Below, piece after piece: positions 8,179 through 50,183 of a DNA stretch of 51,531 nt. The notes under the pieces are model-generated. The model had not been told where the DNA came from. It ran no database searches and saw only the letters and a program-made list of their open reading frames with translations. The position numbers were made by a program, and so were the translations under genes. How positions within the stretch are numbered: the first letter of the stretch is position 1; the number at the start of each line of letters is the position of its first letter. Origin of the DNA: Myxococcales bacterium (GTDB lineage: Bacteria > Myxococcota_A > Polyangia > Fen-1088). The stretch is taken from the NCBI GenBank assembly GCA_003158395.1, contig PMIX01000238.1:1-51531 (forward strand). Direction: 5' to 3'.

Positions 8179-8183
8179 TCTTC

Positions 8184-11518: not shown

Positions 11519-11521
11519 TCC

Positions 11522-34820: not shown

Positions 34821-34896
34821 TCGCGTGGGGAGCCCGCCGGCTTCGACGGCGGCGTACCATCGCGGGAGGGTTTGGGAACCCTCCCAGGGTTCCCAT
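34821..34896 (+). repeat. Intergenic repeat element, copy C (76 nt)
   Basis: TCGCGTGGGGAGCCCGCCGGCT...ACCATCGCGGGAGGGTTTGGGAACCCTcccAGGGTTCCCAT. It starts 1 nt after the metW stop and ends 3 nt before the stop of the convergent cytochrome gene. Confidence 0.85.
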
Positions 34897-34898
34897 TA

Positions 34899-35957
34899 CT
34901 ATTGGTGGCAGTACCGGCACATCGCCGTACCGTACACCTCAGGCAGGCTGTGTTTTCGCAACCACTGGATCGGGTGTGGATTGCCGCCGATGCCACCCAC
35001 CCGGTGACACCCAACGCAGTTCGAATTCGCTCCCTGATCGTGGCACGAGGCACAGTTCACGATGTCGCGCCGGGCGGGCACTGCGTGCGACGTAGGGCCG
35101 GGGTAGGCCCAGCCAGGCGGGTGCGGGCTGCGCGGGTTGCTGCCCCCAGGCCCAACATTCTCCTGGCTGTGGCAAGCGGTGCAGAAGCCCGTGCCATGGC
35201 AGCGCTGGCACAAAACCGGGTCCGAGCGTGCCTCGATGCTATGGCGGGTCAGGTAGTCGCCGCGGTGGATGAAGTCGCTGGAAACATTCTCGCTGAACTT
35301 GAGTTCTATGCGCGTGGGTACGGTCCCGGCGTGGCAGTCGGCGCAGAAGTTCTGGTCGTGGCACTGCACGCACGCATCGGCGGTCGCGTGCGCGACGCTG
35401 CCGTGCTGCCGGACGAAGTCGCCAGCGTGTGAGAACTCGGCCACCGGTTTGAGCGGGAATCGTTTGAGATCGGTGTGGCACTTCACGCAGCGACCTTCGT
35501 CGAAGTCGACCCTATGCTCATGGCACTTGGTACAGGACTTCATGGTCGGCGGCGTCGCCCCGGGCTGGGAGTACTCCGAAAGCTTCACGTGGCAAGCCGC
35601 GCAGTCGTCGTTGACCAGCTTGAGGTGAACCTTGTGCGAGATGATGACGGTGTGGGGCTCCGGCGGATAGGTCCCCGGGTGGGCCGGATCAGTGTGGCAG
35701 TAGCCACACTCTTTCTGCTCTTTCTTGTCGGCGTGACACTCCAGGCACTTGGCCTCCGGCGGCCGCAAGCGATCCGTGACGGTCGCGGCCTCGGGCACTT
35801 CCTCGTGGCACATCAGACACGGCACGTCCTTCGTGTGAACCGCGTGCGATTGCCGGATCTCCTCGCCGGGCTGCTTGGCCCGCCTTGTCCCCAGCATGGT
35901 CGCGCAGGCGGCGATGCCCAGCGTTAGCACCGCAACCCATGCCCTGCGGCCGCTCAC
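34899..35957 (-). CDS. 13-heme c-type cytochrome lipoprotein (cytochrome c3/c7-like multidomain)
   Basis: GTG start with GTGA overlap to the upstream gene. Lipobox LTLGIAAC. There are 13 CXXCH motifs in 352 aa (CLMCH, CLECH, CGYCH, CAACH, CTKCH, CVKCH, CVQCH, CADCH, CQRCH, CTACH, CASCH, CVGCH, CRYCH). Confidence 0.85.
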   Translation of the reverse strand: MSGRRAWVAVLTLGIAACATMLGTRRAKQPGEEIRQSHAVHTKDVPCLMCHEEVPEAATVTDRLRPPEAKCLECHADKKEQKECGYCHTDPAHPGTYPPEPHTVIISHKVHLKLVNDDCAACHVKLSEYSQPGATPPTMKSCTKCHEHRVDFDEGRCVKCHTDLKRFPLKPVAEFSHAGDFVRQHGSVAHATADACVQCHDQNFCADCHAGTVPTRIELKFSENVSSDFIHRGDYLTRHSIEARSDPVLCQRCHGTGFCTACHSQENVGPGGSNPRSPHPPGWAYPGPTSHAVPARRDIVNCASCHDQGANSNCVGCHRVGGIGGNPHPIQWLRKHSLPEVYGTAMCRYCHQ

Positions 35958-37222
35958 GGCGTGACCTCTTTCACCACGCGGCCTCCTTCATAGACGATCT
36001 TGAGCAGGCCTTCGATCTGGTGTGTGGCATAGGGGGTCACATTGTCCATTCCGGTCAGTACCGCGCGCCAGGCCGGCGCCACGTCATACACCAGACTGCC
36101 CGATCCGAAGAAAGAACGATCCTGACCGTTCAGCCGCTGGTCCAGGTCGTACGCATCGAAATCGGCAACCACGCGAATTTTCGTCGTGATGGTTTGCCAG
36201 CCAAACACGCGGCCCATGAGATAGCCGCCGCCTGGGATCCTCAGCCGCCGGCTCTCCACGCCGAGTCGCGTTCGCCCGCCGCTGCCCAGATGCAGGGTGG
36301 CCTTTCCGCCCGTGTTCCAACCCCATCCACTGGCGTCGTGGACCTCGTGAAAATCGCCTTGCAGGTCCAACCTGCGCGGCCATGGCCGCAGAGCCAGAAA
36401 GCCGCCAAACTCGTCGCGCGTCTCCTGGGCGAAGACTGCGAAGATCGAATAGCGCGGCAAGAAGAGATCCGGGGCCGTGCGCCGGTAGTCCCCGGTCACG
36501 TCCACATAGCGACAAGGCCGCCAGTTGATTGCCCCATCAGCCTCGGCCAACCGCGCCTCGGGAAGGCTCCACCGTGCCAGCCCACTGAGCGCGAGCGAAT
36601 CCAGCAACCGGTAGCGGGCGTCGACCCCTGCATCCCGGCGGGACATATGTCGGCCCGCCCCGAGGATTTCCAAGATCGACACGCCCACCTCTGATTCGTA
36701 CGAACGACTCCAGAACGCTCTTGCCCCGGTCGTGAACTGGCCCCGGCTGTAGCCGAAGCGTGGGGTGACTGGAACGCCAACGAATCCTGACAAGCCGAAG
36801 CCCGCCCCCACACGCAACGTAGGGGCAAGGCCGTCGAACTGGACGTTGGCCGCGGTCCCCGGAAACACGAACTGGCGGCCCACGCGCAGGGTCGCTCGCC
36901 GGTGCCAGGTCGAGCCCTGCAAGTAGGCCACATCCACGTCGCCCAGCGCGCTCTTTCCGTCGCGCGGATCGCCTGCCACGACCTCACCCCAGCCCGAAAC
37001 CACGATCTGCGTGTCGTCGAACATTGGGTTCTTGATCTCCGAAGCGCGCAAGGAAACCAGCTCGAGGAAGGGCACCACGGTGCGGACGGTGCCGTCGCGC
37101 GGATCGCGCTGGCCCGAGATGATTGTGGTCGCGCTCGCCGTGACGGTCTCAGCCCGGGCCAATCCAGTCCCCGCCACCAGCGCGGCCAGACCAGCGAGAA
37201 GAGGCCGCCATCTAGTCGCCAT
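35954..37222 (-). CDS. Putative outer-membrane beta-barrel (porin-like) protein encoded between two multiheme cytochromes
   Basis: Sec signal MATRWRPLLAGLAALVAGTGLARA. There is no heme motif. Many short amphipathic strand-like segments rich in G/R/aromatics run throughout (LRVGRQFVF, GFGLSGFVGV, VGVSILEIL, VDARYRLL, GKATLHLG, IRVVADFDAY, GSGSLVYDV). The barrel assignment comes from pattern only. Confidence 0.6.
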   Translation of the reverse strand: MATRWRPLLAGLAALVAGTGLARAETVTASATTIISGQRDPRDGTVRTVVPFLELVSLRASEIKNPMFDDTQIVVSGWGEVVAGDPRDGKSALGDVDVAYLQGSTWHRRATLRVGRQFVFPGTAANVQFDGLAPTLRVGAGFGLSGFVGVPVTPRFGYSRGQFTTGARAFWSRSYESEVGVSILEILGAGRHMSRRDAGVDARYRLLDSLALSGLARWSLPEARLAEADGAINWRPCRYVDVTGDYRRTAPDLFLPRYSIFAVFAQETRDEFGGFLALRPWPRRLDLQGDFHEVHDASGWGWNTGGKATLHLGSGGRTRLGVESRRLRIPGGGYLMGRVFGWQTITTKIRVVADFDAYDLDQRLNGQDRSFFGSGSLVYDVAPAWRAVLTGMDNVTPYATHQIEGLLKIVYEGGRVVKEVTP

Positions 37223-38897
37223 CGAAGACTCCGTTCATGTGGGTCGTGGTCAGGACTCCCGACCCGCTGGAAAAGATGATGTTTCCGGCAGAGTCTATGG
37301 TGCTGCCGTGGCAGGCGACACACCCGGTTCGTGTTACCCCGGTCGGGTGTCCCGAAAACTGTGGTGGGATGCCGTGACAGGTGGCGCCGCACGCGCCGCT
37401 GTCGGGTGAGACCCAGTTGGGCGTCTGCTGGATGCCCGGGGTCCTGTCTGTGTTGAGCGGCTCACCGCCGCCGTGACAGTACGCGCCCGAGCAAGTCGCC
37501 CGACTGCGATCCCATACCGGCGCCGCGCTCTGGGCCCGCGCCAACGTCCCCGAGCCGGGTACGTTGGGGAAGACCGCGGCCGCCGCGACTGTGCCGGGCG
37601 CGTGACCTGGGCCGAAATGGCCGGGGCTAAGCACGTTGGCCGGAACCTGATGGCACTCCGAGCACTGGATCGGGCCACGAATGTCGAGCTGGGGCGTTAC
37701 CAAATGCCGCTGGTGCTGCCCCACCCCGATGGCCCCTGGATCGGAATTCCCTTGTAGATCGGGAGGGGGCGCCGGGGAGGCGGCTGAACCGTGGCAGGTG
37801 TTGCAGGGCGTGTTCGCGTCAGCAAAATCGACCGTGCCGTTGAGGTGCAGGTTCGCGCTGATCAGGTTGGTCTGCGCGTCGACAACGTTGCGATGGCAAC
37901 TCGAGCAGCGGGTCCCGCCTGCGCCGTTGGGCGGAAGGCCGTGGCAGAAGGTGCAGGTTTGGGTCGCGGGTCGAGGCGCGGCATTCCAGCTTGGGTTGTT
38001 AGTCACCGCCGCCGAGTCGGCGGTGGTGGCGCCATGGCAGTAAACGTTGCTGCACGTTTGCAGGTTCGCATCCCAGGCCGGCGGCCCCGCGCGCGTTCCA
38101 TCGGCGGGCGTGAGCGCGGCCAGTCCAGCCACCAGCGAGACTTGTGCAGGGCCGGTGCGCAGTGAGCCGTCGAGCGCAAGACCGTGATCCTGAGCGCTCT
38201 TGTGATCCGGATGGCAAGTCGAACAAGTGAACTGCTTGGCCAGCAGGCCACCGTCAACGTGGATCTTGTGCTTGCCCGAGGCTGGCGTGGAAGCGTGGCA
38301 GGCTGCACAGGCTGGCGTACCGTCGGGATTCATCACCATGGGCTGCATGCCGCCCGAGCCCTGGTGGCACGACAAGCAAGACACCCCTGTCGCCCCACCG
38401 GAAAAGTCCTGGCCATGGCACTTCTGACAAACGCCGAAATTGAAGTTGGACTCGAGCAGAATCGTGCCGTGGAAGTCGGGCTGCGCAGGATCCAGAACCC
38501 CGGCCGTGTGCACCGAGGTTGCCTCCTGCAGATAGGTGGCCCGGCAGGCGACCACCCATTTCGTTGCCTGTTCGTAGACATCGGGCATCCCCAAATGCGG
38601 GCCGGTTGCCGTCACTGGGTTCAGCACGGAAAGGAGCTTGGAACGACCATCGCCCGCGACCACATCTGGCGTCGTGCCCGCCCCCAGGGCGAGATTGTAG
38701 GTCGTCGTGTCGTAGCCACCCTGGGCCGGGCCCCCGTCTCCAGACGAGTGGCATTGGCTGCATCTCTCCTTGAAGAGTGGCCCGATGTTGTTCTCCCAAT
38801 CGGGGCAAGCGCGAGGGTCATTGACCAGTGGCCGCGCCTTCGCACATCCAAGGATTGAAACAGCCAGAGCGACTCCTGCGGCAAGACTGTGTTTCAT
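37212..38897 (-). CDS. Multiheme c-type cytochrome lipoprotein with CX4CH...CXXCH (Geobacter-type) repeat units
   Basis: ATG 38897 gives MKHSLAAGVALAVSILGC (lipobox). It has 10 CXXCH, 2 CX4CH (CSNVYCH, CSGAYCH) and 1 CX3CH (CGATCH). Its stop overlaps the start of the barrel gene by 11 nt. Confidence 0.85.
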   Translation of the reverse strand: MKHSLAAGVALAVSILGCAKARPLVNDPRACPDWENNIGPLFKERCSQCHSSGDGGPAQGGYDTTTYNLALGAGTTPDVVAGDGRSKLLSVLNPVTATGPHLGMPDVYEQATKWVVACRATYLQEATSVHTAGVLDPAQPDFHGTILLESNFNFGVCQKCHGQDFSGGATGVSCLSCHQGSGGMQPMVMNPDGTPACAACHASTPASGKHKIHVDGGLLAKQFTCSTCHPDHKSAQDHGLALDGSLRTGPAQVSLVAGLAALTPADGTRAGPPAWDANLQTCSNVYCHGATTADSAAVTNNPSWNAAPRPATQTCTFCHGLPPNGAGGTRCSSCHRNVVDAQTNLISANLHLNGTVDFADANTPCNTCHGSAASPAPPPDLQGNSDPGAIGVGQHQRHLVTPQLDIRGPIQCSECHQVPANVLSPGHFGPGHAPGTVAAAAVFPNVPGSGTLARAQSAAPVWDRSRATCSGAYCHGGGEPLNTDRTPGIQQTPNWVSPDSGACGATCHGIPPQFSGHPTGVTRTGCVACHGSTIDSAGNIIFSSGSGVLTTTHMNGVFDGD

Positions 38898-38979
38898 CAA
38901 ATGGCCCCACCAGAAATGCTGTTGCGTCGGCAACGGTGCGAATATCGCCATCCTGACCTTCTGGCGCATCTTTCGGCGT

Positions 38980-38985
38980 AGTATA
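38980..38985 (-). promoter_or_regulatory. Possible -10 box (TATACT) in the AT-richer divergent region upstream of the cytochrome operon
   Basis: The minus strand reads TTGCCT-15 nt-TATACT about 80 nt upstream of ATG 38897. The spacer is short. No GG-N10-GC sigma-54 motif was found here. Confidence 0.2.
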
Positions 38986-39027
38986 TGCAAGTTATCCGAT
39001 AGGCAAAAGTGACTAAATCAGTGTCGC

Positions 39028-39843
39028 GTGGTTCGGTGCCGCATCACATCGCAGCAACCGGACGTCTGGAGAGACTGTCAGCAAGAACACCACGATTGGA
39101 TTCACTCGGGCCGTTGTCTGCGCCAGTTTCTGTGGCTCGCGCGCTCGTGCTGTTCGGACTACCATCCTGACGCCGCCCGTCTAAACTTCCCACCCCCCAA
39201 CGGAGAGCGTCCCCTGAGATTCAAGCTGGTCATATTCGACTTCGACGGCACGCTGGCCGACAGTCTCGGCTGGTTTATCGGCATTTCCGATCGACTGGCT
39301 GACGAGTTCGGGTTCGACAGAATCGACAAGCAGCAAGTCGCCACCCTCAGGCGTCACGACGCTGCCACGCTGCTGAAACTACACCATGTGCCCCTTTGGA
39401 AGGTGCCCTTCATCGCGGCTCGCTTCCGGATGTTGATGGCCAAACAGATCCGGATGATCGCGCCCTTTCCTGGGGTGGCCGACGTGCTCGGCCAACTGGC
39501 GCAGGCGGGCGCGACGCTGGCCGTGGTGACGTCCAACTCCTGCGCCAATGTTCGTCGTGTCCTGGGAAGGAAAAGCGCGGGGCTCCTGGTGGCCTGCGAG
39601 GGGGGCGTGTCCATCTTTGGCAAGCGCTTGAAGCTGCGCAAGGTTTTGCGGCGCAGTGGAATCCACCCTGCCCAGGCCATCTTCATCGGCGACGAGATTC
39701 GCGACATCGAGGCCGCCCGCCACGCGGGCATCGCGAGCGGCGCGGTGGCCTGGGGTTTCACGGACCTGGATGCACTCAAGGCTCATTCGCCGGACATGCT
39801 CTTCGGGAGTGTAGGCGAGATGCTCTCGGTGCTGGTTGGGTAG
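39028..39843 (+). CDS. HAD-superfamily hydrolase (phosphoglycolate phosphatase-like, subfamily IA)
   Basis: Motif I VIFDFDGTLADS, motif II VVTSNS, motif III/IV K...FIGDEIRDIEAARHAG. The first ~60 aa of the track ORF look non-native. The real start may be near 39214 (GGAGA at 39202). Confidence 0.7.
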   Translation: MVRCRITSQQPDVWRDCQQEHHDWIHSGRCLRQFLWLARSCCSDYHPDAARLNFPPPNGERPLRFKLVIFDFDGTLADSLGWFIGISDRLADEFGFDRIDKQQVATLRRHDAATLLKLHHVPLWKVPFIAARFRMLMAKQIRMIAPFPGVADVLGQLAQAGATLAVVTSNSCANVRRVLGRKSAGLLVACEGGVSIFGKRLKLRKVLRRSGIHPAQAIFIGDEIRDIEAARHAGIASGAVAWGFTDLDALKAHSPDMLFGSVGEMLSVLVG

Positions 39844-39852
39844 ACCTGGGCG

Positions 39853-41247
39853 CTAGCCCTTCTTAAAGTCCTCTGAGCGAACACTGTAGCGCTTGAGCAG
39901 GCGATGGAGACTTTCGCGCTCGATGCCAGCCCGCTCGGCGGCGCGGGTCACGTTGCCGTCGAACTCGCGCATGAGCACGGCCAAATATTCCCGCGAGATG
40001 CGGTCCCGCGCGGTCTCCATGGCCTCGCGGTAGGGCATCCTGACCAGCACCTCGGCCGGAAGCGCGCCCACCTGGGCGCCCCGCAGCTCCGCCGGCAGAT
40101 CGCGGATGTCGATCTCCTTTCCGGCCGCGATAGCCACCGCGCGCTCGATGGCGTTCTCCAACTCGCGCACGTTGCCCGGCCAGTTGTAGGCCGTCAGCGC
40201 CCGCAGAGCCGCGTTGCCGATCCCCGTGACATCGCGCTTGCCGCTGCGCGTGTGTTTGGCGAGAAAGTGGGCCGCCAGCGCCGGGATGTCCTCGCGTCGC
40301 TCGCGCAAGGCGGGCATGCGGATGGGGAAAACGTGCAATCGGTAGTAGAGATCCTCACGGAACCGTCCTGCCTGTACCTCGGCCTTGAGGTCCCGGTGGG
40401 TGGCGGTGATGATCCGCACGTCGACCGGGAACGACTTGTTCTCGCCCACCCGACGGATCTCCCTGTCCTGCAGAACCCGATTCAGCTTCACCTGAACCGG
40501 CAAGGGCAGCTCCCCCACCTCGTCCAGGAACAGCGTGCCGTGGTTGGCTTCCTCAAACAGGCCCGGTTTGCTGGCAGCCGCGCCGGTGAAGGCACCCTTG
40601 GCGTGGCCAAAGAGTTCGCTCTCCACCAACTCGGCCGGCAGCGCGCCAGAGTTCACCGGAACGAAGCGATTGTGTTTGCGCCCACTGTGGTAGTGCACCG
40701 CACGCGCCGCCAGCTCCTTGCCCGTGCCGGTTTCCCCGGTGAGCAGCACCGTCATGTCAAGCCCCGCGGCCCGCTCCAGAAGACCGTACACCTCGCGCAT
40801 GGGCGGGCTCTTGCCGACCATGTTGTGGAACGAGTTCACACCCTCCAGCTCCTTGCGCAGGCTCACCGTCTGTGCGCGCAGGCGTCGGCGCTCCAGGGCG
40901 CGCGCCACCACCAGCGCCGCGGCGTCGGGATCAAAGGGCTTCTGGATGTAGTCGTACGCGCCCTGTTTCATGGCCTCGACCGCGTCGGGAACCGAGCCGT
41001 AGGCAGTCATCAAGACCACCTCGGTCTCGGGCCAGCGCGCTTTGACGGATTCCAACACCGTGAAGCCACTGGCACCCGGCATCTTGAGATCGGTCACCAC
41101 CACGTCGTACTCGTGCTCCGCGATCAGCGCCAAGGCCTTGGCGCCGTCGCTGGCGGTGCTGAGGTTGTGCTCGTCGCCCAGGATCTTGGCGAACAGCTTG
41201 AGCATGTTCTCCTTGTCGTCCACCACCAACACGGAAGGCTGGTTCAT
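39853..41247 (-). CDS. Sigma-54-dependent response regulator (NtrC family: REC-AAA+-Fis HTH)
   Basis: REC domain (VLVVDDKENM...VVVTDLKMPG), Walker A GETGTGKE, the GAFTGA motif (ESELFGHAKGAFTGA), VRELENAIERAV, and a C-terminal HTH (GNVTRAAERAGIERESLHRLLKRY). Confidence 0.9.
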   Translation of the reverse strand: MNQPSVLVVDDKENMLKLFAKILGDEHNLSTASDGAKALALIAEHEYDVVVTDLKMPGASGFTVLESVKARWPETEVVLMTAYGSVPDAVEAMKQGAYDYIQKPFDPDAAALVVARALERRRLRAQTVSLRKELEGVNSFHNMVGKSPPMREVYGLLERAAGLDMTVLLTGETGTGKELAARAVHYHSGRKHNRFVPVNSGALPAELVESELFGHAKGAFTGAAASKPGLFEEANHGTLFLDEVGELPLPVQVKLNRVLQDREIRRVGENKSFPVDVRIITATHRDLKAEVQAGRFREDLYYRLHVFPIRMPALRERREDIPALAAHFLAKHTRSGKRDVTGIGNAALRALTAYNWPGNVRELENAIERAVAIAAGKEIDIRDLPAELRGAQVGALPAEVLVRMPYREAMETARDRISREYLAVLMREFDGNVTRAAERAGIERESLHRLLKRYSVRSEDFKKG

Positions 41248-42713
41248 GTCGTGTCTCCTTTGGGGCGCGGCAAGCGTATGACGAAGCAGGTGCCGCCCGG
41301 TCCGGGCGGCTCGGCGACGATCTCGCCACCATGGGCGCGCGCGATAGCTTGCGAGACCGCCAGGCCCAGACCGGTTCCGCGCGGCTTGTTCGTGAAAAAA
41401 GGTTCGAACAGGCGCTCGCGCGCCTCCGCATCCAGGCCCGGACCTGAATCACGAACCGTCACCTGCGAACGCTCCCCGTTGTCTCCGACATGGATCTCGA
41501 CGCGTCCGGCGGGAGCAGCCGCCTCAACCGCGTTCTTGATGAGGTTGAACAGAACCTGGCGCAGCTTGGACGCCGTGCCCGTGACGCCACCCTGCCCCGT
41601 GACCGCCACAGTCACGCCCGGTGTCGGCGCCGCTTCCGCAAGCCGTGCCACCACGTCGTCGCATAGCGCGCGCAGGTCCACGCGCTGCGATCCGACCACG
41701 ACTGGCCGCGAAAAATCGAGGAGTCCCTCCACGATCTCCTGACAGCGCAGGACCTCTTCCTCCACGATCGCCAGATCGTCGCCCAGCGGCCCGACCGCCT
41801 TTTTGCGCAAAAGGCGCGTGTACCCCAGGATCACTCCCAACGGGTTGTTGATCTCGTGTGCCACGCCGGCGGCCAGGCGGCCCACGCCGGCTAGGCGCTC
41901 GCTCTGCAGGAGACGGTGCTGCTGTTCCTTGAGCGATGCGACCATGTTGTTGAACTGCCGGGCCAGGTCGCCGAATTCGTCGTTGCCGCCAACTGCGATG
42001 CTGGTATCCAGGTCGCCGGCTGCCAGCCGTTCTGCTCCGGCATGGAGAAGCGCAACCGGCCGCGCAACCTTGCGGCCAAGATAGACGGCCACTCCCCCGG
42101 CCAGAAGCGGCGCCAGCACCAGGAAGAACACGCTCCAGCCCAAGGTCCGATCGCGGGTTGCCTGGGCAAATGACTGCAGGTCCCCGATGGCGTCTTCGAA
42201 GCGCTTGGCCAAAAGATCGGTTCGTTGCTGAATGCGGCCTACCACGGCCAGGGCGCGCGCATGCTCGACATGGGCGTCCGCGGTCCGACCGGAGAGCACG
42301 GCCGGCACGATCTGCCGGCTGAAGATGCTGTCCAATTCGGCGGCACCGGCCTCGATGTCGTCGACCCAGGCGCTCTCGTCAGGCCTTTCCGCCCGCTCGC
42401 GCAAGTCATTGATCAGGGTGAGAACCCGTGCTTTGGCTTCGGAATAGAAGCCGAGATGGCTGTCGTTGCCGATGATAATGGTGTGGGCTTGGTGGGCGTA
42501 CTGGTCGCGCACGGCGCTGGCCAAATCCAAGGCCAAACGCATGCTGTCCATTCGCGCGCGCGTCCGGGCCAGACCGCGGTTGACCTGGGCGAAACCGAGC
42601 AGCGCGATCGACGTGGCGCCAGCGTAGAGCGCGATCAGTGCCGCAAACGCCAGCGCCAACCGCCGCGCGGTTCCGGAGCGGACGCCAATCATGCTGAAGA
42701 CCGACGGTGACAT
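41244..42713 (-). CDS. Sensor histidine kinase (helical periplasmic sensor, HAMP, HisKA, HATPase)
   Basis: Two TM segments, HAMP (AAGDLDTSIAVGGNDEFGDLARQFNNM), H-box GVAHEINNPLG, N-box LIKNAVEA, and G-boxes DSGPGL / GTGLGLAV. 4-nt overlap with the response-regulator gene. Confidence 0.85.
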   Translation of the reverse strand: MSPSVFSMIGVRSGTARRLALAFAALIALYAGATSIALLGFAQVNRGLARTRARMDSMRLALDLASAVRDQYAHQAHTIIIGNDSHLGFYSEAKARVLTLINDLRERAERPDESAWVDDIEAGAAELDSIFSRQIVPAVLSGRTADAHVEHARALAVVGRIQQRTDLLAKRFEDAIGDLQSFAQATRDRTLGWSVFFLVLAPLLAGGVAVYLGRKVARPVALLHAGAERLAAGDLDTSIAVGGNDEFGDLARQFNNMVASLKEQQHRLLQSERLAGVGRLAAGVAHEINNPLGVILGYTRLLRKKAVGPLGDDLAIVEEEVLRCQEIVEGLLDFSRPVVVGSQRVDLRALCDDVVARLAEAAPTPGVTVAVTGQGGVTGTASKLRQVLFNLIKNAVEAAAPAGRVEIHVGDNGERSQVTVRDSGPGLDAEARERLFEPFFTNKPRGTGLGLAVSQAIARAHGGEIVAEPPGPGGTCFVIRLPRPKGDTT

Positions 42714-42940
42714 TCGCGGTTACAGTGTAGCCGAAACGGTCAACGCCCGCCAAGGCGCGAGGACAAATTGTGCAAATATGATGGGCAGCGGGCCTGCCCG
42801 GCATGGCCCGCCATCATGTATGATCGCGCGATGGCCACCTCGTTCCTAAGCCTCATGGGAGCGCTGCGCTCCTCCCAACTGTACCCCCGGCGACCTTGCA
42901 CTTGAGAACCTTGCCCGCCCGACGACGGCTGCACGTTGCC

Positions 42941-44458
42941 ATGGCAGCTCTCGCGCGCCACGAAGCAGCCCTGCTGTTCGTTTGTGTAACGAGCGTCTAT
43001 CTTCTCACGCGGTACCCCGCTGTGGGGGGGAGATACCAGTGGGGCGACGCCGCCAAGTGGCAGTACCTCGGCTCCATTCTGGGTGTCTCTCACCCGCCTG
43101 GCAGTCCGCTTTATGTCCTGCTCACATTTCTTTGGTCGAAGCTGCCACTTGGTACGGGGCTGGGCGCGAAGATCATGGCCTTCTCCTCTGTCTGCGGCGG
43201 TGGCGCGGTGTCTTTGCTATACGCAAGCGCGCGGCGGCTGTCCTTTTCGCGGGCAGCGTCACTTCTTGCCGCAGGGGTGTTCGCGTTTTCTCTGCCCGTT
43301 TGGGTCTTCTCCACCGAGGCCGAGGTCTATTCGGCGTTTGCGTTGAGTATGGCTTTCGTCATTCACCGCGCGTTGCTGTGGAGGACAGGCCTACGCGACC
43401 GAGATCTCTGGGCGGCCTATTTCGTCTACGCGCTTTCGTTCTCGATCCACTACATGGCCATCACCTACTTCTTGCCGTTGGCCATGCTGTTGGTAGGAAC
43501 AAACTGGCGCGCGATTCTTCGCCCGACCAACGTGCTCATGGCGCTCGCAGCGATCATGGCGGGTTTGTTGCCGATGCTCTGGCTATGGTTTCGGATCCCC
43601 GGGGCAGACTACAACGAGTTTCCAGGGCCGAGAACTTGGCCGAAGTTCATCGATTTCCTCCTCGCACGCCAATACCGCAACACGATGTTTTCATTTACGT
43701 TGAAGCAGATGTGCTTCGACCGAATCGGTTGGGGCGTGTCAAGACTCGGTCGGTTCATGGGGTTCCCACTCCTGGCGGTCGTACCCATAGGCGTGCCGTG
43801 TCTTGCGCGGGTGGCCCGGCTCGTGGCCGCGTTTGCTGTGGTGGGGTTCCTCGCGCCTTTTCTGTTTTGGGTGGGCTACGCTCGGGGAGACGAGTTGGCG
43901 GGAGCCATCCCCGTCTTGATGATAGCGGGGATTCTTGTGGCGTCGGTTTTCGACTCCCTAGCTTCAACGGTCACGCCTCGTTGGGTGCGCATCAGCGTCT
44001 CCCTTGTCGCGATAGCATCCGCTGCAATCAGTCCCATCGCCACCGCTGCGGAATTTGCCCAGCATGATCCCGCGGTCCATTTCACCTATGCCGTCGACTC
44101 GATTCCGAAGTACCGCTGGGACGTCGCCTGCATAGTCCAGCAGGCTGAGCCGAATGCCACGATCGTGCCGCCGTACGGCGACTACGGTTCGAGACAGATC
44201 GTCTACTACCACCGCTATGCCGATCCCGTCGTGAAGGCAAAGCACCTCACGTTCAGATACTTCTTCGCAGCTCCCAGCGAATGGGCGTGGGCGCCTCCGT
44301 CGTGGACGCCTGATCCGTCAGAACCCGGTCCCATATATTTCTACTCCGGCAGCTACGTCGATCGGTTCCGTCGCTCCGGATTCCGCGTCGAAGAGACAAC
44401 CATGGGCGCCTGTGACGGCAAGGGAGGTACTTTGCCGTTCTATCGCGCGTCGCATTAA
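42941..44458 (+). CDS. DUF2723 (TMEM260-like) polytopic membrane protein, second and shorter paralog
   Basis: YLLTRYPAVGGRYQWGDAAKWQYLGSILGVSHPPGSPLYVLLTFLW parallels the N-terminal signature of the 14229-16391 paralog. It is multi-TM. ATG 42941 is favoured over the TTG at 42896. Confidence 0.75.
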   Translation: MAALARHEAALLFVCVTSVYLLTRYPAVGGRYQWGDAAKWQYLGSILGVSHPPGSPLYVLLTFLWSKLPLGTGLGAKIMAFSSVCGGGAVSLLYASARRLSFSRAASLLAAGVFAFSLPVWVFSTEAEVYSAFALSMAFVIHRALLWRTGLRDRDLWAAYFVYALSFSIHYMAITYFLPLAMLLVGTNWRAILRPTNVLMALAAIMAGLLPMLWLWFRIPGADYNEFPGPRTWPKFIDFLLARQYRNTMFSFTLKQMCFDRIGWGVSRLGRFMGFPLLAVVPIGVPCLARVARLVAAFAVVGFLAPFLFWVGYARGDELAGAIPVLMIAGILVASVFDSLASTVTPRWVRISVSLVAIASAAISPIATAAEFAQHDPAVHFTYAVDSIPKYRWDVACIVQQAEPNATIVPPYGDYGSRQIVYYHRYADPVVKAKHLTFRYFFAAPSEWAWAPPSWTPDPSEPGPIYFYSGSYVDRFRRSGFRVEETTMGACDGKGGTLPFYRASH

Positions 44459-44697
44459 CCGCGGCCTCTCGCTTGATGGTGAGACACGCCTCGCGCGCGC
44501 GGTCGACGCAGTGCTGTGGGGCTGATACGACGGCCAACCGTCGCGGAGTCGCTTCCTTCCCGAAAACGAGGGTGCTCATGGCTGGCTCCCTCCGAGCACC
44601 CGTCGTGTGGGCACTTCACCGGACACAAAACGCGGAGTCCCATCATCCAACAGCCGATCGCAGCAACCAGACAAATACCCTACGCCTACCGATTTAC

Positions 44698-44726
44698 TTG
44701 GATTTGCCCCTGCGAGATGCTAATCA
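44698..44726 (+). promoter_or_regulatory. Ambiguous promoter candidate upstream of the collagen-like cytochrome gene
   Basis: TTGGAT-17 nt-(TGc)TAATCA reads as a weak sigma-70 extended -10 promoter. The same stretch, TGGATTTGCCCCTGCG, also satisfies the minimal sigma-54 GG-N10-GC spacing (44700-44713). Neither match is strong. Confidence 0.2.
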
Positions 44727-44780
44727 ATTCGACATAGTTTGCGCGACCTTGGCAGCCGTCCTTCCGGAGGTAACAGGCCC

Positions 44781-47246
44781 ATGACAGGAAACCGTCTTTC
44801 TCGATTGGCAATCTGTCTTTCTGTTGGTTTCAGTTTGGCGGCATGTACGGGCGCTCGCGGCCCAACCGGGCCTGCGGGCGAAGCGGGTCCACCGGGACCT
44901 CCAGGCCCTCCAGGCGAAGCTGGTCCTCCCGGACCTCGAGGCCCCGGGATTGATGCCTCATCTGCCGGAGATGGGCCAATCGGCAAGCCTCCGACCGTGA
45001 CGATCGCTGGCTCCACGCAGACTGCTGGGTTTGGCGCACCGGTCACCCTAGTTGGCGCCGCAACCGACCCCGACTCGGACGTCAGCACGCTCACGTACAC
45101 GTGGGTCCAAACTGGTGGCCCCACGGCGACTTTGACCGGAGCCGGCAGCAAGACTCTGAGCTTCACCACACAAGCCCTGGCCGATGCAAAAACCCCTGTG
45201 ATGGCCCAGCTTCACTTCGGCGTGCTTCCCGTCAGCCCGGACGAAGCCGGAAATTACTCCTTTGAATTGGATGTCACTGATCCACAAGGCAACGTGGGCA
45301 AGGCCACGGCTACGGTCCGCTCGAACCCGCCCACCGCGGGACTACAGAATGTTCCCGTCGGCATCCGCCAGTTTCTGATGGGTGACGGTGGAACTCAGAC
45401 GACTTGGAACTGGAGTCTGGACGCAACGGGGGCGACTGGCTCAAATGCCACCCTGGCGAGCGCTACCACGCAGTTTCCCAGCTTCATCCCTGATGTCGTG
45501 GGCAGCTACACCCTGACCGAGGCGGTGTCAACCAAGACGCTCACCATCGTCGCGGGCAATTGGCGTGGCATGATGACCGACTACGCGACAAACTGCCAGA
45601 CCTGTCACAACGACACGATCGCTCCGGATGTGTTCACGCCGTGGTCCAAGACGGCTCACGGGATCGCCGTACAGCACAAGCTCGACGGGACCTACTCCGA
45701 TGGGGTGACGCCGCTGACCTACTTTCCGCGCTCCTGCATGGAATGCCACACCGTGGGCGACTCGCCGGCAGCGGTCAACAACGGCTTCGATGACGTCGAA
45801 AAGACCAGCGGCTGGACCATGCCCACCAAGCTGCAGCCAGGCAACTGGGAGAACCTGCTGACGAACTACCCCGATCTGGCCAAGTTGGCCGGCATCCAGT
45901 GCGAAAACTGCCACGGTCCGCAAGACGGCGCGATCGGGCACCTCTCGACCGCGCACACTACGTCCAGCCACACGACCCCCGACAAGTGGACGCGCGTGTC
46001 GTTCTCCGAGGGTGTTTGCGCCTCCTGCCACCAGGACGCAAGCCACCACTACAAGCCGAGCCAATGGGCGACGTCCGCCCACGCCCAGCGCGACCTCGTC
46101 TCCAACGCCACCTTTGAGTCCCGTGGGACCACGGCGGCCCACTGCGGCCGGTGCCATTCGGCCCAAGGCTTTGCTGCGTACTCAGCCCAGCTGGCTGCGG
46201 GAGACGCGGGCCTGCTGCACAAGCCCGATGGCAGCGCGGCCGACGAGGCCTATCTGCGCGGGCTAGGCCTGCAGTCTTCCACCGTCGAGGCGATCACCTG
46301 CGCGGCCTGCCACGATCCGCACGATGCCAAGAACCCCGGCCAGCTTCGTTTGGGCGGAGACCTCAAGGCGTTGCCCAACGGCCTAACCAACATCTCCGAC
46401 GCGGGCAAGGGTGCCACCTGCATGGCCTGTCACAATACCCGGAACGCTGAACACGATGACTTCGTCGCTGCGGCCACCGATTTCTCGGGCCCACACACGC
46501 CTTCGCAAACCGACCTGCTCTACGGGTTCAACGCGTACTTCATGCCGCGTCTCAATCCATCCCCCCACCTATCAGTGACCGATACCTGCGCGGGCTGTCA
46601 CGTGGCCGTACCCACTGCCACCGAGAAGGCCGCGGGACAAACCGACAACCACAACTTCGCCACCGACGACACCGTCTGCGCCTCTTGCCACTCGTCGTCG
46701 ACCAACGGAGAGGCTCTGCTGGCTGCCAACAACGCGCAACTTGGCGAACTGAGTGCCGCGATCGGAACAAAGGCCCTGGCCATCATCGATGCCCTGTACA
46801 CCGCCGGAAACACACTTTCTGTGCGGGCATACCGACAGCTGACCGATCAGTACAGCTCCGCGGCTGCCACCACAGCCAACGTTCTCTTGTCCACCGCACC
46901 CACCGCGGTCGTCCTCCGTTCCGCCATCCACGGGACGACTTCCTTCACCCTAACTCTGGCCGCGCCAGTGGACGTCACTTGGGTAGCGACAGCGTCCGCC
47001 CCCGCCAGTACCGAGACCTTGGCGCAGATCGACTGCCAGATCAGCGGCATCACCATCACAGGCCAGAGCGCGCCGCCTGTGCCGCCCGCCTTGACAGGCG
47101 CACCGGTGCCCGCCATCGCGACGAATTCGGTGGTGGCCAAGGCGAGCTGGAACCTGCAATTGCTCAGCAACGACGGCTCGAGAGGCTTGCACAATCCTGA
47201 CTTCTTCCAAGACGTGATTGTCAACACCCTGGAAGCCCTGCAATAG
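44781..47246 (+). CDS. Lipoprotein 9-heme c-type cytochrome with N-terminal collagen-like triple-helix repeat and PKD/Ig-like domains
   Basis: GGAGG lies 10 nt upstream of ATG 44781. Lipobox GFSLAAC, then (Gly-X-Y)11. PKD-like segments follow (VTLVGAATDPDSDVSTLTYTWVQTGGP; YSFELDVTDPQGNVGKATATV). Nine CXXCH motifs: CQTCH, CMECH, CENCH, CASCH, CGRCH, CAACH, CMACH, CAGCH, CASCH. Confidence 0.85.
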   Translation: MTGNRLSRLAICLSVGFSLAACTGARGPTGPAGEAGPPGPPGPPGEAGPPGPRGPGIDASSAGDGPIGKPPTVTIAGSTQTAGFGAPVTLVGAATDPDSDVSTLTYTWVQTGGPTATLTGAGSKTLSFTTQALADAKTPVMAQLHFGVLPVSPDEAGNYSFELDVTDPQGNVGKATATVRSNPPTAGLQNVPVGIRQFLMGDGGTQTTWNWSLDATGATGSNATLASATTQFPSFIPDVVGSYTLTEAVSTKTLTIVAGNWRGMMTDYATNCQTCHNDTIAPDVFTPWSKTAHGIAVQHKLDGTYSDGVTPLTYFPRSCMECHTVGDSPAAVNNGFDDVEKTSGWTMPTKLQPGNWENLLTNYPDLAKLAGIQCENCHGPQDGAIGHLSTAHTTSSHTTPDKWTRVSFSEGVCASCHQDASHHYKPSQWATSAHAQRDLVSNATFESRGTTAAHCGRCHSAQGFAAYSAQLAAGDAGLLHKPDGSAADEAYLRGLGLQSSTVEAITCAACHDPHDAKNPGQLRLGGDLKALPNGLTNISDAGKGATCMACHNTRNAEHDDFVAAATDFSGPHTPSQTDLLYGFNAYFMPRLNPSPHLSVTDTCAGCHVAVPTATEKAAGQTDNHNFATDDTVCASCHSSSTNGEALLAANNAQLGELSAAIGTKALAIIDALYTAGNTLSVRAYRQLTDQYSSAAATTANVLLSTAPTAVVLRSAIHGTTSFTLTLAAPVDVTWVATASAPASTETLAQIDCQISGITITGQSAPPVPPALTGAPVPAIATNSVVAKASWNLQLLSNDGSRGLHNPDFFQDVIVNTLEALQ
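44850..44948 (+). repeat. Collagen-like Gly-X-Y repeat, 11 uninterrupted triplets (coding)
   Basis: GAR GPT GPA GEA GPP GPP GPP GEA GPP GPR GPG, read directly from 44850-44948. It begins 2 residues after the lipobox Cys. Confidence 0.9.
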
Positions 47247-47381
47247 GTATTCGGGGCTCGTGTCGAAAACATAGGGCCACAAGTTCCTCAGCCTCCCCGG
47301 TCGCGGCAAGCTATGCTTGCAGGGACGGCCGGGGCCGCCAGAACCGCGAAGAACAGCCAATCTGGGACATTTGAAGAGGCC

Positions 47382-48887
47382 ATGCCGGTGCTGCCCAAGT
47401 CGCTTTCTCCCACCATCGCCAGACTGGCCAACTACGCGAGAAATCCGCTCACGGTCCTCGGCTTTGGACTGACGACGCTGTCAGGGCTCGCCTTGATCGT
47501 CTTCCTCGCGCTCGAGGTGGGGGGCCAGGTCGACAATCCGTACACCGGGGTGTTCGGCTCAGCCTTTCTGCCCTTGCTCTTCGTGGGCGGGCTGCTGCTC
47601 ATGCCAATCGGCATCCTTCGGCGACGCCAGGCGTTCATGAGCAGCGGTCAGTCACCCGACGCCATCACGACCTACCCGAAGCTGGATTTCAACGATCCGC
47701 ACCTGCGACGTGTGGCCCTGGTCATCGCCGCGCTCACCGTGATCAACGTCGTGGTACTCGCGACAAGCTCGGTCGTGGGGCTGAATTTCATGGACACACC
47801 GAAGTTCTGCGGAACCGTGTGCCACAGGGTCATGCGGCCGGAATACACGGCCTACCAGAATTCACCGCACGCGCGGGTCAAGTGCGTTCAATGCCACATC
47901 GGACCGGGCGCCTCCTGGGCGGTCCGTTCCAAGTTCGATGGCCTACGCCAGGTGTGGAAGGTGATGACCGGGACCTATGCCCACCCCATTCCCTCGCCCG
48001 TGCACACGCTCCGCCCGGCGCGCGACACCTGCGAAAGCTGCCACTGGCCAGCCAAGCACTACGGCGACAAGCTGCGCGTTGTTGGCCGCTTTGCCGAGGA
48101 CGACAAAAACAGCGCCAGCTTCACCGCGCTGTTGCTCAGGACTGGCGGCGGCGCCTTTGGGGCTGGCCAGCCTCACGGCGGGATCCACTGGTGGCACATC
48201 TACGCCGACAATCGCATCCGCTACTTGGCCACGGACCAACGCCGGCAAGAGATCGCCTGGGTCGAGCTGACCACTCCCGACGGAATGAAGACGGAGTTCA
48301 CGCGCGAGGGCGCGAACCTCCCGCCTCCGGACAGCATCCAAAGATCAGCGCGCGTGATGGACTGCATCGACTGCCACAATCGGCCGACTCACCTGTTTGA
48401 GACCCCGGCCAAGGCCGTTGACAGTGTCCTGCAGCGGCAGGCGGATCTGCGATCCCTGCCGTTCCTCAAGCGGGAGACGGTCAAGGCGGTCTCGGCGGTC
48501 TACCCCAGCCACGACGAGGGCATGGCCGCAGTCCGCCAGAGTGTGACCGCCTTCTACCGCAAATCCTATCCGGAGATCGCTGCACGCGACGGCAAGCTGG
48601 TTTCGCGGGCTGCGGACGAGGCAGCTGGGGTGTACGATCGTACGGTGTTCCCCGAGATGAACACCAATTCCAAGACCCACCCCAACAACATCGGACACGA
48701 CGACTCGCCGGGCTGCTTCCGCTGCCACGACGGCAGCATGAAAGCGTCCAAGGGCGACCAGGTCATTCCCAATGATTGCGACACCTGCCATGCCATTCTG
48801 GTCGACGGCAGCCCCAGCGAGCCTGACCTCAGCCAGCTCGTGCTGGCGCCGCCCGTGGTTCCTGCCCCCTCGGAGGCCAAGCCGTGA
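47382..48887 (+). CDS. Membrane-anchored multiheme cytochrome, NapC/NirT-like (candidate quinol dehydrogenase)
   Basis: GAAGAGG SD, ATG 47382. Three predicted TM helices (LTVLGFGLTTLSGLALIVFLAL; FLPLLFVGGLLLMPIGIL; VALVIAALTVINVVVLATSSVV). Then FCGTVCHRVMRPEYTAYQNSPHARVKCVQCH, a NapC/NirT-like pattern. Five CXXCH motifs plus one CX3CH. Confidence 0.8.
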   Translation: MPVLPKSLSPTIARLANYARNPLTVLGFGLTTLSGLALIVFLALEVGGQVDNPYTGVFGSAFLPLLFVGGLLLMPIGILRRRQAFMSSGQSPDAITTYPKLDFNDPHLRRVALVIAALTVINVVVLATSSVVGLNFMDTPKFCGTVCHRVMRPEYTAYQNSPHARVKCVQCHIGPGASWAVRSKFDGLRQVWKVMTGTYAHPIPSPVHTLRPARDTCESCHWPAKHYGDKLRVVGRFAEDDKNSASFTALLLRTGGGAFGAGQPHGGIHWWHIYADNRIRYLATDQRRQEIAWVELTTPDGMKTEFTREGANLPPPDSIQRSARVMDCIDCHNRPTHLFETPAKAVDSVLQRQADLRSLPFLKRETVKAVSAVYPSHDEGMAAVRQSVTAFYRKSYPEIAARDGKLVSRAADEAAGVYDRTVFPEMNTNSKTHPNNIGHDDSPGCFRCHDGSMKASKGDQVIPNDCDTCHAILVDGSPSEPDLSQLVLAPPVVPAPSEAKP

Positions 48888-50170
48888 GATATCTCGGCAT
48901 GGTCGGTCTGACCGTGCGCCGAGGACAGCAGGAAGGGCTGGCGAAATACACTTTCAGTCCGCAGGAGCGTGAGGTCCAGGCCAAGGCCCTTCACCAGGCC
49001 TGCGACTTCCTCGAAAGCGTGTACCTGGCCACCTGCAATCGGGTCGAGGTGATCTTCTTGTGCCGCCGGGGCACCCCAGTTTCCGAGTATCGCAGGCGCA
49101 TCCACGGGTTCTTCGCAGCGCGCAGCCAAGCCGGAACGGCCAAGGAGCCGACGGCGCGGATCGCAGCCCAGGGCCTGCACGCCTACGAGAAGGATGGCGC
49201 GGCCGAACACCTTTTCTGCGTGGCCGCGGGTCTCGACTCGCTCAACCCTGGCGATTCCCAGATTCTGGGCCAGGTCAAGGATGCGTTGCAGGTGGCGCAG
49301 CGGCTGGGGTTGGCCGGCCCGCACCTGCAGCTAGTCTTTGAAGAAGCCTTCCAGGCGGCCAAACGCGTGCGCAGCAAGACCAGCCTCGGGGCCAGGCCGG
49401 TATCCATGGTTTCGCTGGCCTTCAACCTCATCGACGCACGGACCAAGGGGCCCGCCACGGTGGCGCTCATCGGAGCGGGCGAGATGACACGCCAATGTGG
49501 CGAGCATTTGCGCGGCCGGGCCGAGTGCAACCTTCTCTTCGTCAACCGCACGGTGAGCAAGGTGGTCGAGCTCGCCGCCTCCTGTGGCGGCCGCGCCTTG
49601 GCCCTGGATGCTTTTCTGGCAGCGCCCGGGCATGTGGAGGTCATCGTGACCGCCACCTCGGCGCGCGAGCCTCTCCTCGGACGCGCGTTCTTTGCAGCCC
49701 TGCAGGGCTCGGCGCCGGTGGTGATTGATCTGGCCGTACCCCGCGACACCGACGTGCAGGCCGCCGCGGCCGCAGGAGTTCAGTTGTTCGACATCGACCA
49801 CCTGAAGGCCGAGGCTGAACACAACCGGCGGGCGCGCGAGGCCGAGATCGCCGAGGCTCGGATCATCATCGACGAAGCCCTCGAGGCGCTCCGCCGGCGG
49901 GTGTTCGAGCGCGACATCAGTCCCATTGTGCGCGACTTGCGCAGCCAGGGCCAGGCGGCGGCCGACGAGTTGCTCAAGCAGCTTTTCGACAACGGCCTTG
50001 CCAAGCTGGACGAGGTGCATCGCGACCACATCCGGCGTTTCGGCCAGCAGGTCGTCAATCGACTTCTGCACCTGCCGACCGTGGGGCTGAAGCGTCTGGC
50101 GCAGGACCACGGCATGGAAGCGGTAGAGGCTTTCTTGCAGGGCGTGCGTGACGACCACCACGGGCAGTAG
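48884..50170 (+). CDS. hemA: Glutamyl-tRNA reductase
   Basis: Active-site region VYLATCNRVEVIF, SLNPGDSQILGQVK, and NADPH site ALIGAGEMT. The GTG 48884 start overlaps the upstream stop (GTGA). Alternative ATG at 48899. Confidence 0.9.
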   Translation: MRYLGMVGLTVRRGQQEGLAKYTFSPQEREVQAKALHQACDFLESVYLATCNRVEVIFLCRRGTPVSEYRRRIHGFFAARSQAGTAKEPTARIAAQGLHAYEKDGAAEHLFCVAAGLDSLNPGDSQILGQVKDALQVAQRLGLAGPHLQLVFEEAFQAAKRVRSKTSLGARPVSMVSLAFNLIDARTKGPATVALIGAGEMTRQCGEHLRGRAECNLLFVNRTVSKVVELAASCGGRALALDAFLAAPGHVEVIVTATSAREPLLGRAFFAALQGSAPVVIDLAVPRDTDVQAAAAAGVQLFDIDHLKAEAEHNRRAREAEIAEARIIIDEALEALRRRVFERDISPIVRDLRSQGQAAADELLKQLFDNGLAKLDEVHRDHIRRFGQQVVNRLLHLPTVGLKRLAQDHGMEAVEAFLQGVRDDHHGQ

Positions 50171-50183
50171 TATTCCGCCCAAC

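Follow-up and report, generated by a model that had tools for sequence, protein, structure and literature searches.

Does a cluster of multiheme cytochrome genes in a member of the Myxococcota encode one system for extracellular electron transfer, and which regulator would control it? The question is raised by the window analysed here, i.e., the whole stretch of 51,531 nucleotides from a Myxococcales bacterium of the Polyangia (contig PMIX01000238.1 of assembly GCA_003158395.1). In an original prediction made from the letters alone, positions 34899-50170 were taken for an electron-transfer island under a dedicated sigma-54 two-component system, consisting of a histidine kinase and an NtrC-type response regulator (here HK and RR54). 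The follow-up analysis favours, with a probability of about 0.62, two operons of one Myxococcota-type extracellular electron-transfer system, split by unrelated genes (HK/RR54, a HAD-family gene and a DUF2723 gene). The region would represent a credible Myxococcota system of a porin-cytochrome unit and an ImcH-type quinol oxidase, noteworthy for its collagen-like stalks and for a shared promoter element combined with an in-operon OmpR-type system. The conserved 19-nt element before both cytochrome operons and the second two-component system, made up of the kinase HK2 and the OmpR-type regulator RR2, are new here. The role assigned to HK/RR54 was not borne out.

Gene content of the region

The four multiheme cytochromes, the barrel protein, hemA, the DUF2723 protein and the HK/NtrC-type pair were all found where they had been predicted (Table 1). 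The cytochromes contain 13, 10 plus 3 atypical, 9, and 5 plus 1 heme motifs. Together, these make 41 motifs, all of them within 34899-50170, in agreement with the earlier estimate of about 40 heme sites in 15 kb. Motifs were counted in all reading frames, and because no open reading frame (ORF) elsewhere in the 51.5-kb window reaches two CXXCH, the clustering of the cytochromes is not attributed to chance. Three points had been overlooked: the lipoboxes on the three outer cytochromes, the second kinase gene together with the start of an OmpR-type regulator gene at the window end, and the lack of a gene for a periplasmic shuttle cytochrome. The remainder of the window is composed of housekeeping genes and an apparent riboswitch-controlled B12 uptake system. 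The nearest loci belong to metagenome-assembled genomes (MAGs) from fen and Danish soil, labelled Myxococcales, Polyangia or delta proteobacterium, with protein identities of 75-93 %. Loci used for comparison are numbered from L001 onwards.

Table 1 Features of the cytochrome region, grouped by operon, followed by promoter elements and intervening genes
Feature	Position	Strand	Description
cyt13B	ORF 37212-38990, likely start ATG 38897 (MKHSLAAG...ILGC)	-	predicted surface lipoprotein cytochrome
barrel	35954-37222	-	422 amino acids, without Pfam or NCBIfam match
cyt13A	34899-35957	-	352-amino-acid lipoprotein, 13 CXXCH, Cytochrome_C7 (Pfam)
colcyt9	ORF 44739-47246, start ATG 44781	+	9 CXXCH, 11 G-X-Y triplets, PKD, MtrC/MtrF II-IV
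imcH	ORF 47313-48887, likely start Met24 at 47382	+	inner-membrane multiheme quinol oxidase, ImcH-type
hemA	48884-50170	+	glutamyl-tRNA reductase, TIGR01035 244.9 bits (cut-off 209.55)
HK2	50148-51374	+	HisKA and HATPase_c, two transmembrane helices; same operon as imcH
RR2 N-terminus	51371-51531	+	first 53 codons (MSVRILVVEDE...), receiver domain running off the window end
Element copy A, CCTATCGGATAACTTGCATATACT	38980-39003	-	upstream of cyt13B; 19-nt pattern match 38985-39003
Element copy B, CCTACCGATTTACTTGGAT	44685-44703	+	upstream of colcyt9 ATG 44781
RR54	39853-41247	-	NtrC-type: REC, sigma-54 AAA+ (GAFTGA), HTH_8
HK	41244-42713	-	histidine kinase, HAMP, HisKA, HATPase; transmembrane helices 21-39 and 195-213
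Palindrome, GGTTACAGTGTAGCC	42718-42732		beside HK start; candidate RR54 binding site or HK-RR promoter
HAD-family phosphatase	39028-39843	+	HAD_2, E 4e-27; intervening, outside the conduit
TMEM260-like/DUF2723 membrane protein	42896-44458	+	Pfam match; lineage-specific occupant of a variable slot

The barrel-cytochrome trio

The first operon is formed by cyt13B, the barrel gene and cyt13A, which overlap by 4 nt between the cyt13A start and the barrel stop and by 11 nt between the barrel start and cyt13B. In its AlphaFold model, built on 36 homologues, the barrel protein is composed of a signal peptide helix and 22 beta-strands (pLDDT 83.5), which confirms the predicted barrel. The best Foldseek matches are large-lumen barrels, namely PapC/FimD usher pores and OprD/Occ porins (E 1e-9 to 1e-6). 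More than 160 homologues are present in the protein collection, every one unnamed, and a profile scan of 185,579 species genomes recovered 44 barrel loci. Nearly all of these are labelled Myxococcota (Myxococcales, Polyangia, Anaeromyxobacteraceae, Archangium) or unclassified Delta-/Proteobacteria or Pseudomonadota; one is a 255-nt fragment with an unrelated label.

Both flanking cytochromes carry a lipobox that is kept across their families (LGIAAC in cyt13A, ILGC in cyt13B). The cyt13A protein matches the dodecaheme 'nanowire' cytochrome GSU1996 (PDB 3ov0) in four stretches (E 1.5e-16). The 13 motifs of its partner comprise 10 CXXCH, one CX3CH and two CX4CH; this protein has a GSu_C4xC__C2xCH domain and scores 72.5 bits against the CxxxxCH/CxxCH domain TIGR01904. 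Distant Myxococcota loci, defined by barrels of 34-56 % identity, were used to follow the arrangement. A cyt13A homologue lies directly downstream of the barrel gene in 36 of 36 such loci with room for it, and a cyt13B homologue upstream of it in 21 of 33. The order cyt13B-barrel-cyt13A recurs across the Myxococcota, and in Anaeromyxobacteraceae MAGs (L037, L040-43) the barrel homologues are paired with a 12-heme partner.

Some smaller features of this operon can be added. Conservation in the barrel family is highest at residues 247-271 (window 36410-36484), with the sequence RRTAPDLFLPRYSIFAVFAQETRDE. In the model, these residues connect strands 13 and 14 and form the only long loop predicted with low confidence; a cytochrome may make contact there. 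At 34873-34895, a 10-bp GC-rich hairpin is found between the convergent genes metW and cyt13A, probably a bidirectional terminator that closes the left end of the operon. The 5' leader of cyt13B (38898-38975, minus strand) contains a conserved block beginning with ATG, ATGCGCCAnAAGGTCAGGAyGGCGAT, in all near relatives. The frame from this ATG into cyt13B is not kept among them; an upstream ORF and an RNA element are both conceivable.

A proposed surface cytochrome on a collagen-like stalk

The first gene of the second operon is colcyt9, with GGAGG 8 nt before its start codon. In the encoded protein, the lipobox LAAC is followed immediately by the G-X-Y triplets, then by the PKD domain and finally by the 9-heme body, in which MtrC/MtrF domain II-IV was recognised (PF22113, 49.8 bits against a cut-off of 30). 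It is proposed to act as a terminal surface reductase held on a collagen-like stalk. A full HMMER search with the body alone returned 2,697 representative clusters (E<=1e-3). Stalks were counted in full-length members with at least 8 hemes, with the triplets scored in the first 150 residues. At least six G-X-Y triplets stand beside the lipobox in 54 of 100 such members, the median member having 11 triplets and the longest repeat 31, and the repeat mostly begins within two residues of the lipid-anchor Cys. Judging from these proteins, the collagen-like stalk right behind the lipobox Cys characterises this family of surface cytochromes as a whole; in the window, it falls within 44781-44950. No description of such a stalk on surface cytochromes was found in the literature searched.

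Collagen-stalked lipoproteins with 10 hemes (850-1050 amino acids) also flank the trio in 23 distant loci among L012-L044. These 'C3' neighbours were considered as simple orthologues of colcyt9, an interpretation that was rejected for weak similarity, i.e., 28-29 % over 100-200 amino acids plus the collagen segment. They appear to share the architecture of colcyt9, with uncertain orthology.

The ImcH-type cytochrome and hemA

The predicted inner-membrane quinol-dehydrogenase-like cytochrome was confirmed by a NapC/NirT N-terminal region (Pfam) and an ImcH-type layout. Hydropathy peaks at residues 48-66, 84-102 and 134-152 mark three transmembrane helices. A CX3CH motif (CGTVCH) is located at residue 166, 14 residues past the third helix, and is accompanied by five CXXCH; NrfH (2j7a) was matched with E 5.5e-6. 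Homologues are about 500 amino acids long, therefore Met24, which gives a protein of 501 amino acids, is the likely start. Published ImcH proteins have three transmembrane helices, a CX3CH by the transmembrane domain, 5-9 CXXCH and, in Geobacter, 495-519 amino acids (PMC6295460). Placed by its layout against this description, the window protein would fit the family.

The ImcH-like family is very large, with more than 7,600 matches, including Acidobacteria at 54-55 %. In L012, L013, L014 and L016, an ImcH-type gene of the same layout abuts the trio directly upstream, which suggests that ImcH and the trio work together. Orthologues of 70-75 % identity to imcH stand alone beside adk, hence the linkage to the trio is modular and not fixed. 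As for hemA, its 4-nt overlap with the imcH stop indicates co-transcription. It was also considered as a conserved part of the system and dismissed as such, since the imcH-hemA linkage is shallow: it is present in L064 and L065, the closest relatives, and absent in the solitary orthologues next to adk.

A shared promoter element and the HK2/RR2 pair

Alignment of the upstream regions of relatives revealed a core common to both element copies, CCTAYCG-N4-ACTTGGAT. Copy A is about 85-88 nt from the cyt13B start codon and copy B 78 nt from that of colcyt9. At one mismatch or fewer, the pattern occurs at only two sites in the window, both of them promoters and both in gene orientation. A matrix trained solely on copy-A sites ranks copy B 2nd of 103,028 window positions, and the second-copy site is also ranked 2nd in L001, L005 and L009. 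Copy A is conserved in L001-5, L009 and L010, with diverging flanking sequence, and copy B is likewise kept in relatives. In L011 the element is degenerate and can barely be recognised, and the distant loci lack it. In L001, a close relative without colcyt9, the second copy lies directly upstream of imcH, which indicates that the element tracks the operon and not a single gene. Because both carry the same conserved element upstream, the two operons are probably co-regulated.

Each copy of the element includes a direct repeat phased at 10 bp, GATTTAC-TTG-GATTTGC in one and GGAAAAC-TTG-GATATAC in the other, which is the usual pattern for OmpR/PhoB-type regulators. The gene order of the second operon in near relatives is colcyt9-imcH-hemA-HK2-RR2-hemN with 4-nt overlaps, and L064 and L065 carry imcH-hemA-HK2-RR2-hemN (L064 10848-14088). 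The full RR2 of these two loci consists of Response_reg and Trans_reg_C domains (OmpR/PhoB-type) and is followed by hemN. Given the direct repeat, RR2 appears to be the best candidate factor. HK2/RR2 is proposed, by inference only, as the local regulator acting through the shared element, and as a better candidate for this role than HK/RR54.

Sigma-54 promoters and the HK/RR54 pair

If the NtrC-type pair controlled the cytochromes, sigma-54 promoters would be expected before them. The region was scanned for -24/-12 promoters with a position weight matrix approximating TGGCAC-N5-TTGCW (maximum 21 bits), and no site above 8 bits was found in any of its intergenic regions. The best oriented scores upstream of cyt13B, colcyt9 and imcH are 2.2, 6.4 and 1.2 bits, respectively. 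Near-consensus matches (IUPAC, 3 mismatches) are not enriched in the window, with 241 observed and 236 expected. The weak GG-N10-GC match noted earlier at 44700-44713 does exist, but with 5.9 of 21 bits and rank 112 of 103,028 positions it is at chance level. GG-N10-GC occurs 1,086 times in the window, and the -12 GC of this site is lost in L004 and L005. In control loci, the same matrix gives sites of 10-16 bits. For instance, TCGGCACGGCAGTTGCT in L001 (4152-4168) scores 16.2 bits and lies just upstream of a cupredoxin gene, as do the 10-13-bit sites in L058-L060; these sites indicate that the matrix works in this lineage.

The relatives of the pair lead to metal efflux. Full-length HK orthologues (55-67 % identical) occur frequently among the Myxococcota. 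Four of their contexts were examined: in L058-L060, the pair is divergent to cupredoxin-OEP-CusB(HMBD)-CusA, and in Anaeromyxobacter diazotrophicus it is followed by a CusF-like gene. Orthologues in these cus-type contexts are 69-76 % (regulator) and 59-64 % (kinase) identical to the window proteins; for RR54, the identity is 73-76 % with the L058-L060 regulators and 69 % with the one from A. diazotrophicus. Among the sigma-54 activators near distant porin-cytochrome (Pcc) loci, four are unrelated (44-47 % identical to RR54), and the orthologous regulator is present in 1 of 39. The periplasmic sensor motif of HK, ASAVRDQYAHxAHTIIIGxxSH (residues 65-90), is a candidate metal-binding site: its His74, His77 and His86 are invariant in 12 orthologues, together with His151. 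Every orthologous locus, L057, L058 and L060 among them, keeps the palindrome GGCTACACTGTAACC next to the kinase gene. At two mismatches or fewer, no further copy was found in the window, and the sole copy, at 42718-42732, is not at a cytochrome promoter.

Taken together, the pair could not be upheld as the dedicated regulator of the region: the cytochromes lack sigma-54 promoters, the orthologues accompany cus-type operons and the palindrome stands only by HK. The simplest reading is that HK/RR54 would be the orthologue of a metal-responsive regulator whose cupredoxin-CusCBA efflux operon has been lost at this position. The pair resembles metal-responsive sigma-54 systems such as ZraSR: its orthologues are divergent to a cupredoxin-CusCBA operon with a sigma-54 promoter, and the sensor is His-rich. 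In the window, the efflux operon is gone. RR54 and HK score 371 and 147 against the ZraR and ZraS models, far below the cut-offs of 760 and 479, and so form a separate orthologous group.

This reading is supported by L001. At 3058-4322, this locus contains a decayed cupredoxin-OEP-CusA operon, divergent from its HK-RR54 pair and with an intact-looking sigma-54 promoter. Still recognisable as pseudogene remnants are a cupredoxin gene cut short, one half of the OEP gene (52 %) and the C-terminus of CusA (89 %).

Proposed electron path and competing explanations

The scheme starts from the observed gene content, architectures, synteny, promoter motif, orthology of the HK/RR54 pair and absence of sigma-54 promoters; the topology, flow direction, acceptor and binding factor are the parts that we infer. 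The first operon would be the porin-cytochrome conduit. In it, cyt13A, with its c7-type domains like those of GSU1996, would sit in the 22-strand barrel as a heme wire and pass electrons on to cyt13B at the surface. The second operon would supply the ImcH-type quinol oxidase, the 9-heme stalked surface lipoprotein, heme synthesis and the OmpR-type two-component system. Electrons would flow from menaquinol through ImcH and periplasmic carriers, none of them encoded in the window, to cyt13A in the barrel, and on to cyt13B and colcyt9 and an insoluble or humic acceptor. The shared element would co-regulate both operons, with RR2 as the best candidate factor.

Several observations weigh against this scheme or parts of it. 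The cytochromes and the barrel do look like an envelope-spanning conduit, as had been claimed, but the statement that every compartment is covered was too strong, as no periplasmic shuttle cytochrome is encoded in the window. The cyt13A protein is a predicted lipoprotein and hence membrane-anchored rather than soluble. It differs in this from OmaB and MtrA, therefore it is uncertain which cytochrome occupies the barrel. No similarity of the barrel to an MtrB-like fold was detectable, and MtrB is not among the top 50 Foldseek matches. With regard to regulation, sharing of the element is limited to one clade and its conservation is partly phylogenetic inertia, the half-site pattern that points to RR2 is weak, and the sigma-54 matrix is an approximation to the published consensus. 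HK-RR54-HAD adjoins the trio in all near relatives and out to L011 (barrel 53 % identical), which leaves a small chance of co-option rather than drift.

This retention, the position of the pair between the two cytochrome units, and the intact GAFTGA motif and receiver Asp of RR54 are what speaks for HK/RR54 as dedicated activator of the flanking cytochrome operons. It is nonetheless very improbable in this role: no cytochrome gene is preceded by a sigma-54 site above 8 bits, the 5.9-bit match is not conserved in L004 and L005, the palindrome is missing from the cytochrome promoters, and the orthologues regulate cus-type operons and occur at just one of the 39 distant Pcc loci. The 19-nt element might be a mere core promoter (spacer and -10) in two promoters of orthologous age, read by the housekeeping sigma factor without a specific regulator, with operons that are constitutive or controlled elsewhere. 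Copy A ends in TATACT, a -10-like hexamer of the form TAnnnT, L011 keeps TATAGT, and no factor can be assigned from sequence. At the aligned position, however, copy B has TTTGCC, so that the shared part is not a -10 hexamer, and CCTAYCG-N4-ACTTGGAT is conserved while adjacent bases diverge. A consensus sigma-70 scan gave 0 matches in 34.7-51.5 kb, a scan that is uninformative. The core promoter is considered a doubtful explanation.

Electrons could also take the opposite route, with the same hardware taking up electrons or oxidising Fe(II) or reduced humics at the surface and delivering them to the quinone pool or a bc complex, like MtoAB and PioAB. In two distant relatives, L006 (7710-11281) and L008 (7705-11263), the barrel-cyt13A pair lies directly downstream of Rieske, cytochrome b and monoheme cytochrome c genes, which may point to a connection with a bc-type complex or to inward flow. 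In 15 distant loci the trio has monoheme c genes nearby, and two-gene porin-cytochrome units without outer cytochrome are typical of oxidisers (PMC4245776). The window, however, has two large surface cytochromes, no Rieske, cytochrome b or monoheme c genes, and an ImcH, which in a 2018 survey was confined to Fe(III) reducers (PMC6295460). Inward flow is consequently considered unlikely here. That the cytochromes are ordinary periplasmic respiratory enzymes or carriers, neighbours by accident and without electron transfer across the outer membrane, is hardly credible. It would agree with the finding that none of the proteins scores above the cut-off of a Pcc or Mtr family model. It is at odds with a barrel gene translationally coupled between two lipoprotein multiheme cytochromes in an order kept in dozens of genomes, with the MtrC-type domain of colcyt9, and with the lack of catalytic-type motifs such as CXXCK.

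Relation to known systems and significance

The two-operon electron-transfer system resembles several described ones. Pcc units consist of a porin-like barrel and multiheme cytochromes, and the 'Group IV' of Anaeromyxobacter is a two-gene Pcc (Shi et al. 2014, PMC4245776). As in the Geobacter Pcc (OmaB-OmbB-OmcB, Ext) and in Group IV, multiheme cytochrome genes adjoin a porin-like barrel gene. Matched by description, the barrel partner resembles in particular that of Group IV, with about 340-350 amino acids and 12-14 hemes (PMC4245776), and the outer cytochrome is a lipoprotein with atypical motifs (CX3-4CH here, CX3-15CH in the Pcc description). In contrast to Pcc, the barrel family is unannotated and seems to occur in Myxococcota only, the cytochrome coupled to the barrel is a predicted lipoprotein too, and a third tier of collagen-stalked cytochromes is attached. 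A genome scan with the Anaeromyxobacteraceae barrel profile returned MAGs only and no cultured Anaeromyxobacter.

With MtrCAB of Shewanella, the region would share the logic of a heme wire in a barrel and a surface lipoprotein cytochrome. The colcyt9 protein carries the MtrC/MtrF domain II/IV signature, yet it has 9 hemes, a PKD domain and the collagen-like segment. The barrel has 22 instead of 26 strands and no MtrB_PioB match, and the heme counts are 13, 13 and 9 compared to 10 and 10. Against the DmsE/MtrA family TIGR03508 (cut-off 192.2), cyt13A, cyt13B and colcyt9 reach 15.4, 26.3 and 42.9 bits. The ImcH-type protein resembles ImcH (GSU3259) in its three N-terminal transmembrane helices, the CX3CH by the third helix, five CXXCH, a length of about 500 amino acids and the NapC/NirT-like segment. 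It differs in having six rather than seven heme motifs and in its operon partners, a surface cytochrome and hemA. A porin-cytochrome trio lies directly beside the gene in some Myxococcota, unlike in the 2018 survey, where no such link was reported for mtrAB or mtoAB (PMC6295460). The EET1-4 clusters of peat Acidobacteriota and Verrucomicrobiota are comparable as syntenic porin-plus-multiheme modules from peat/fen metagenomes, divergent from Mtr and Omc. They belong to other phyla, and Myxococcota, ImcH and collagen-like segments are unmentioned there (bioRxiv 10.64898/2026.05.27.727921).

A more speculative picture, to which little probability is given, is a lineage with an undescribed outermost step. 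Lipid-anchored 9-10-heme cytochromes would stand on trimeric, triple-helical collagen-type stalks (11 triplets here, up to 31 elsewhere), at a distance of about 10-25 nm from the membrane. A 22-strand porin-cytochrome unit specific to the Myxococcota would feed them, and the set would be switched by an operon-encoded OmpR-type regulator via the shared direct-repeat element.

Fen and peat Myxococcota (Polyangia) are abundant but uncultured, and a conserved porin-cytochrome module specific to the phylum and linked to ImcH would add candidate iron-mineral or humic respirers, a respiration thought to compete with methanogenesis in peat. As the barrel family is unannotated, marker-based surveys probably miss it. 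For experiments, the 19-nt element and the HK2/RR2 pair offer better handles than the sigma-54 regulator, the perturbation of which would most likely disturb a metal-stress circuit and not electron transfer.

Inheritance of the region and neighbouring genes

The region is not inherited as a block, a point that the original prediction had left to comparative genomics: colcyt9 is missing in L001, the DUF2723 gene is unique and the hemA linkage is shallow. From the loci compared, the trio emerges as an old module, ImcH and the stalked cytochromes as frequent but movable partners, and HK-RR54-HAD as clade-specific neighbours. The HAD gene is found beside the two-component pair only in the near clade and L011. 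Horizontal acquisition was examined and rejected. The edges are without integrase, insertion sequence element, tRNA or long flanking repeat, and the GC content equals that of the flanks except for a dip at the DUF2723 gene. The left flank, der-era-rrf2-metX-metW, is syntenic in relatives, and the term 'island' in the sense of horizontal transfer does not apply. The Rrf2 regulator encoded at 32379-32825 was considered as a possible factor for the 19-nt element.

The DUF2723 gene was found in no relative and has the lowest third-position GC content (GC3) of the region, 0.72. A longer DUF2723/TMEM260-like paralogue of 721 amino acids is located at 14232-16394 on the minus strand, and the copy in the cytochrome region may be a recent duplicate or insertion. 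In relatives, the slot holds cus remnants or a Cys-rich protein with T/G/A repeats. The latter (L004 2785-4233; L001 1577-3085) is secreted, with long Thr/Gly/Ala repeats (TGG-TTAA units) and a Cys-rich C-terminal part.

An Rfam scan of the window found only one tRNA and a cobalamin riboswitch, both outside the cytochrome region. The riboswitch (7887-8109, plus strand, 100 bits) precedes a TonB-dependent receptor gene, which is followed by genes for a FecCD permease, an ABC ATPase and a periplasmic binding protein (7959-14227), an arrangement that resembles a B12 uptake locus.

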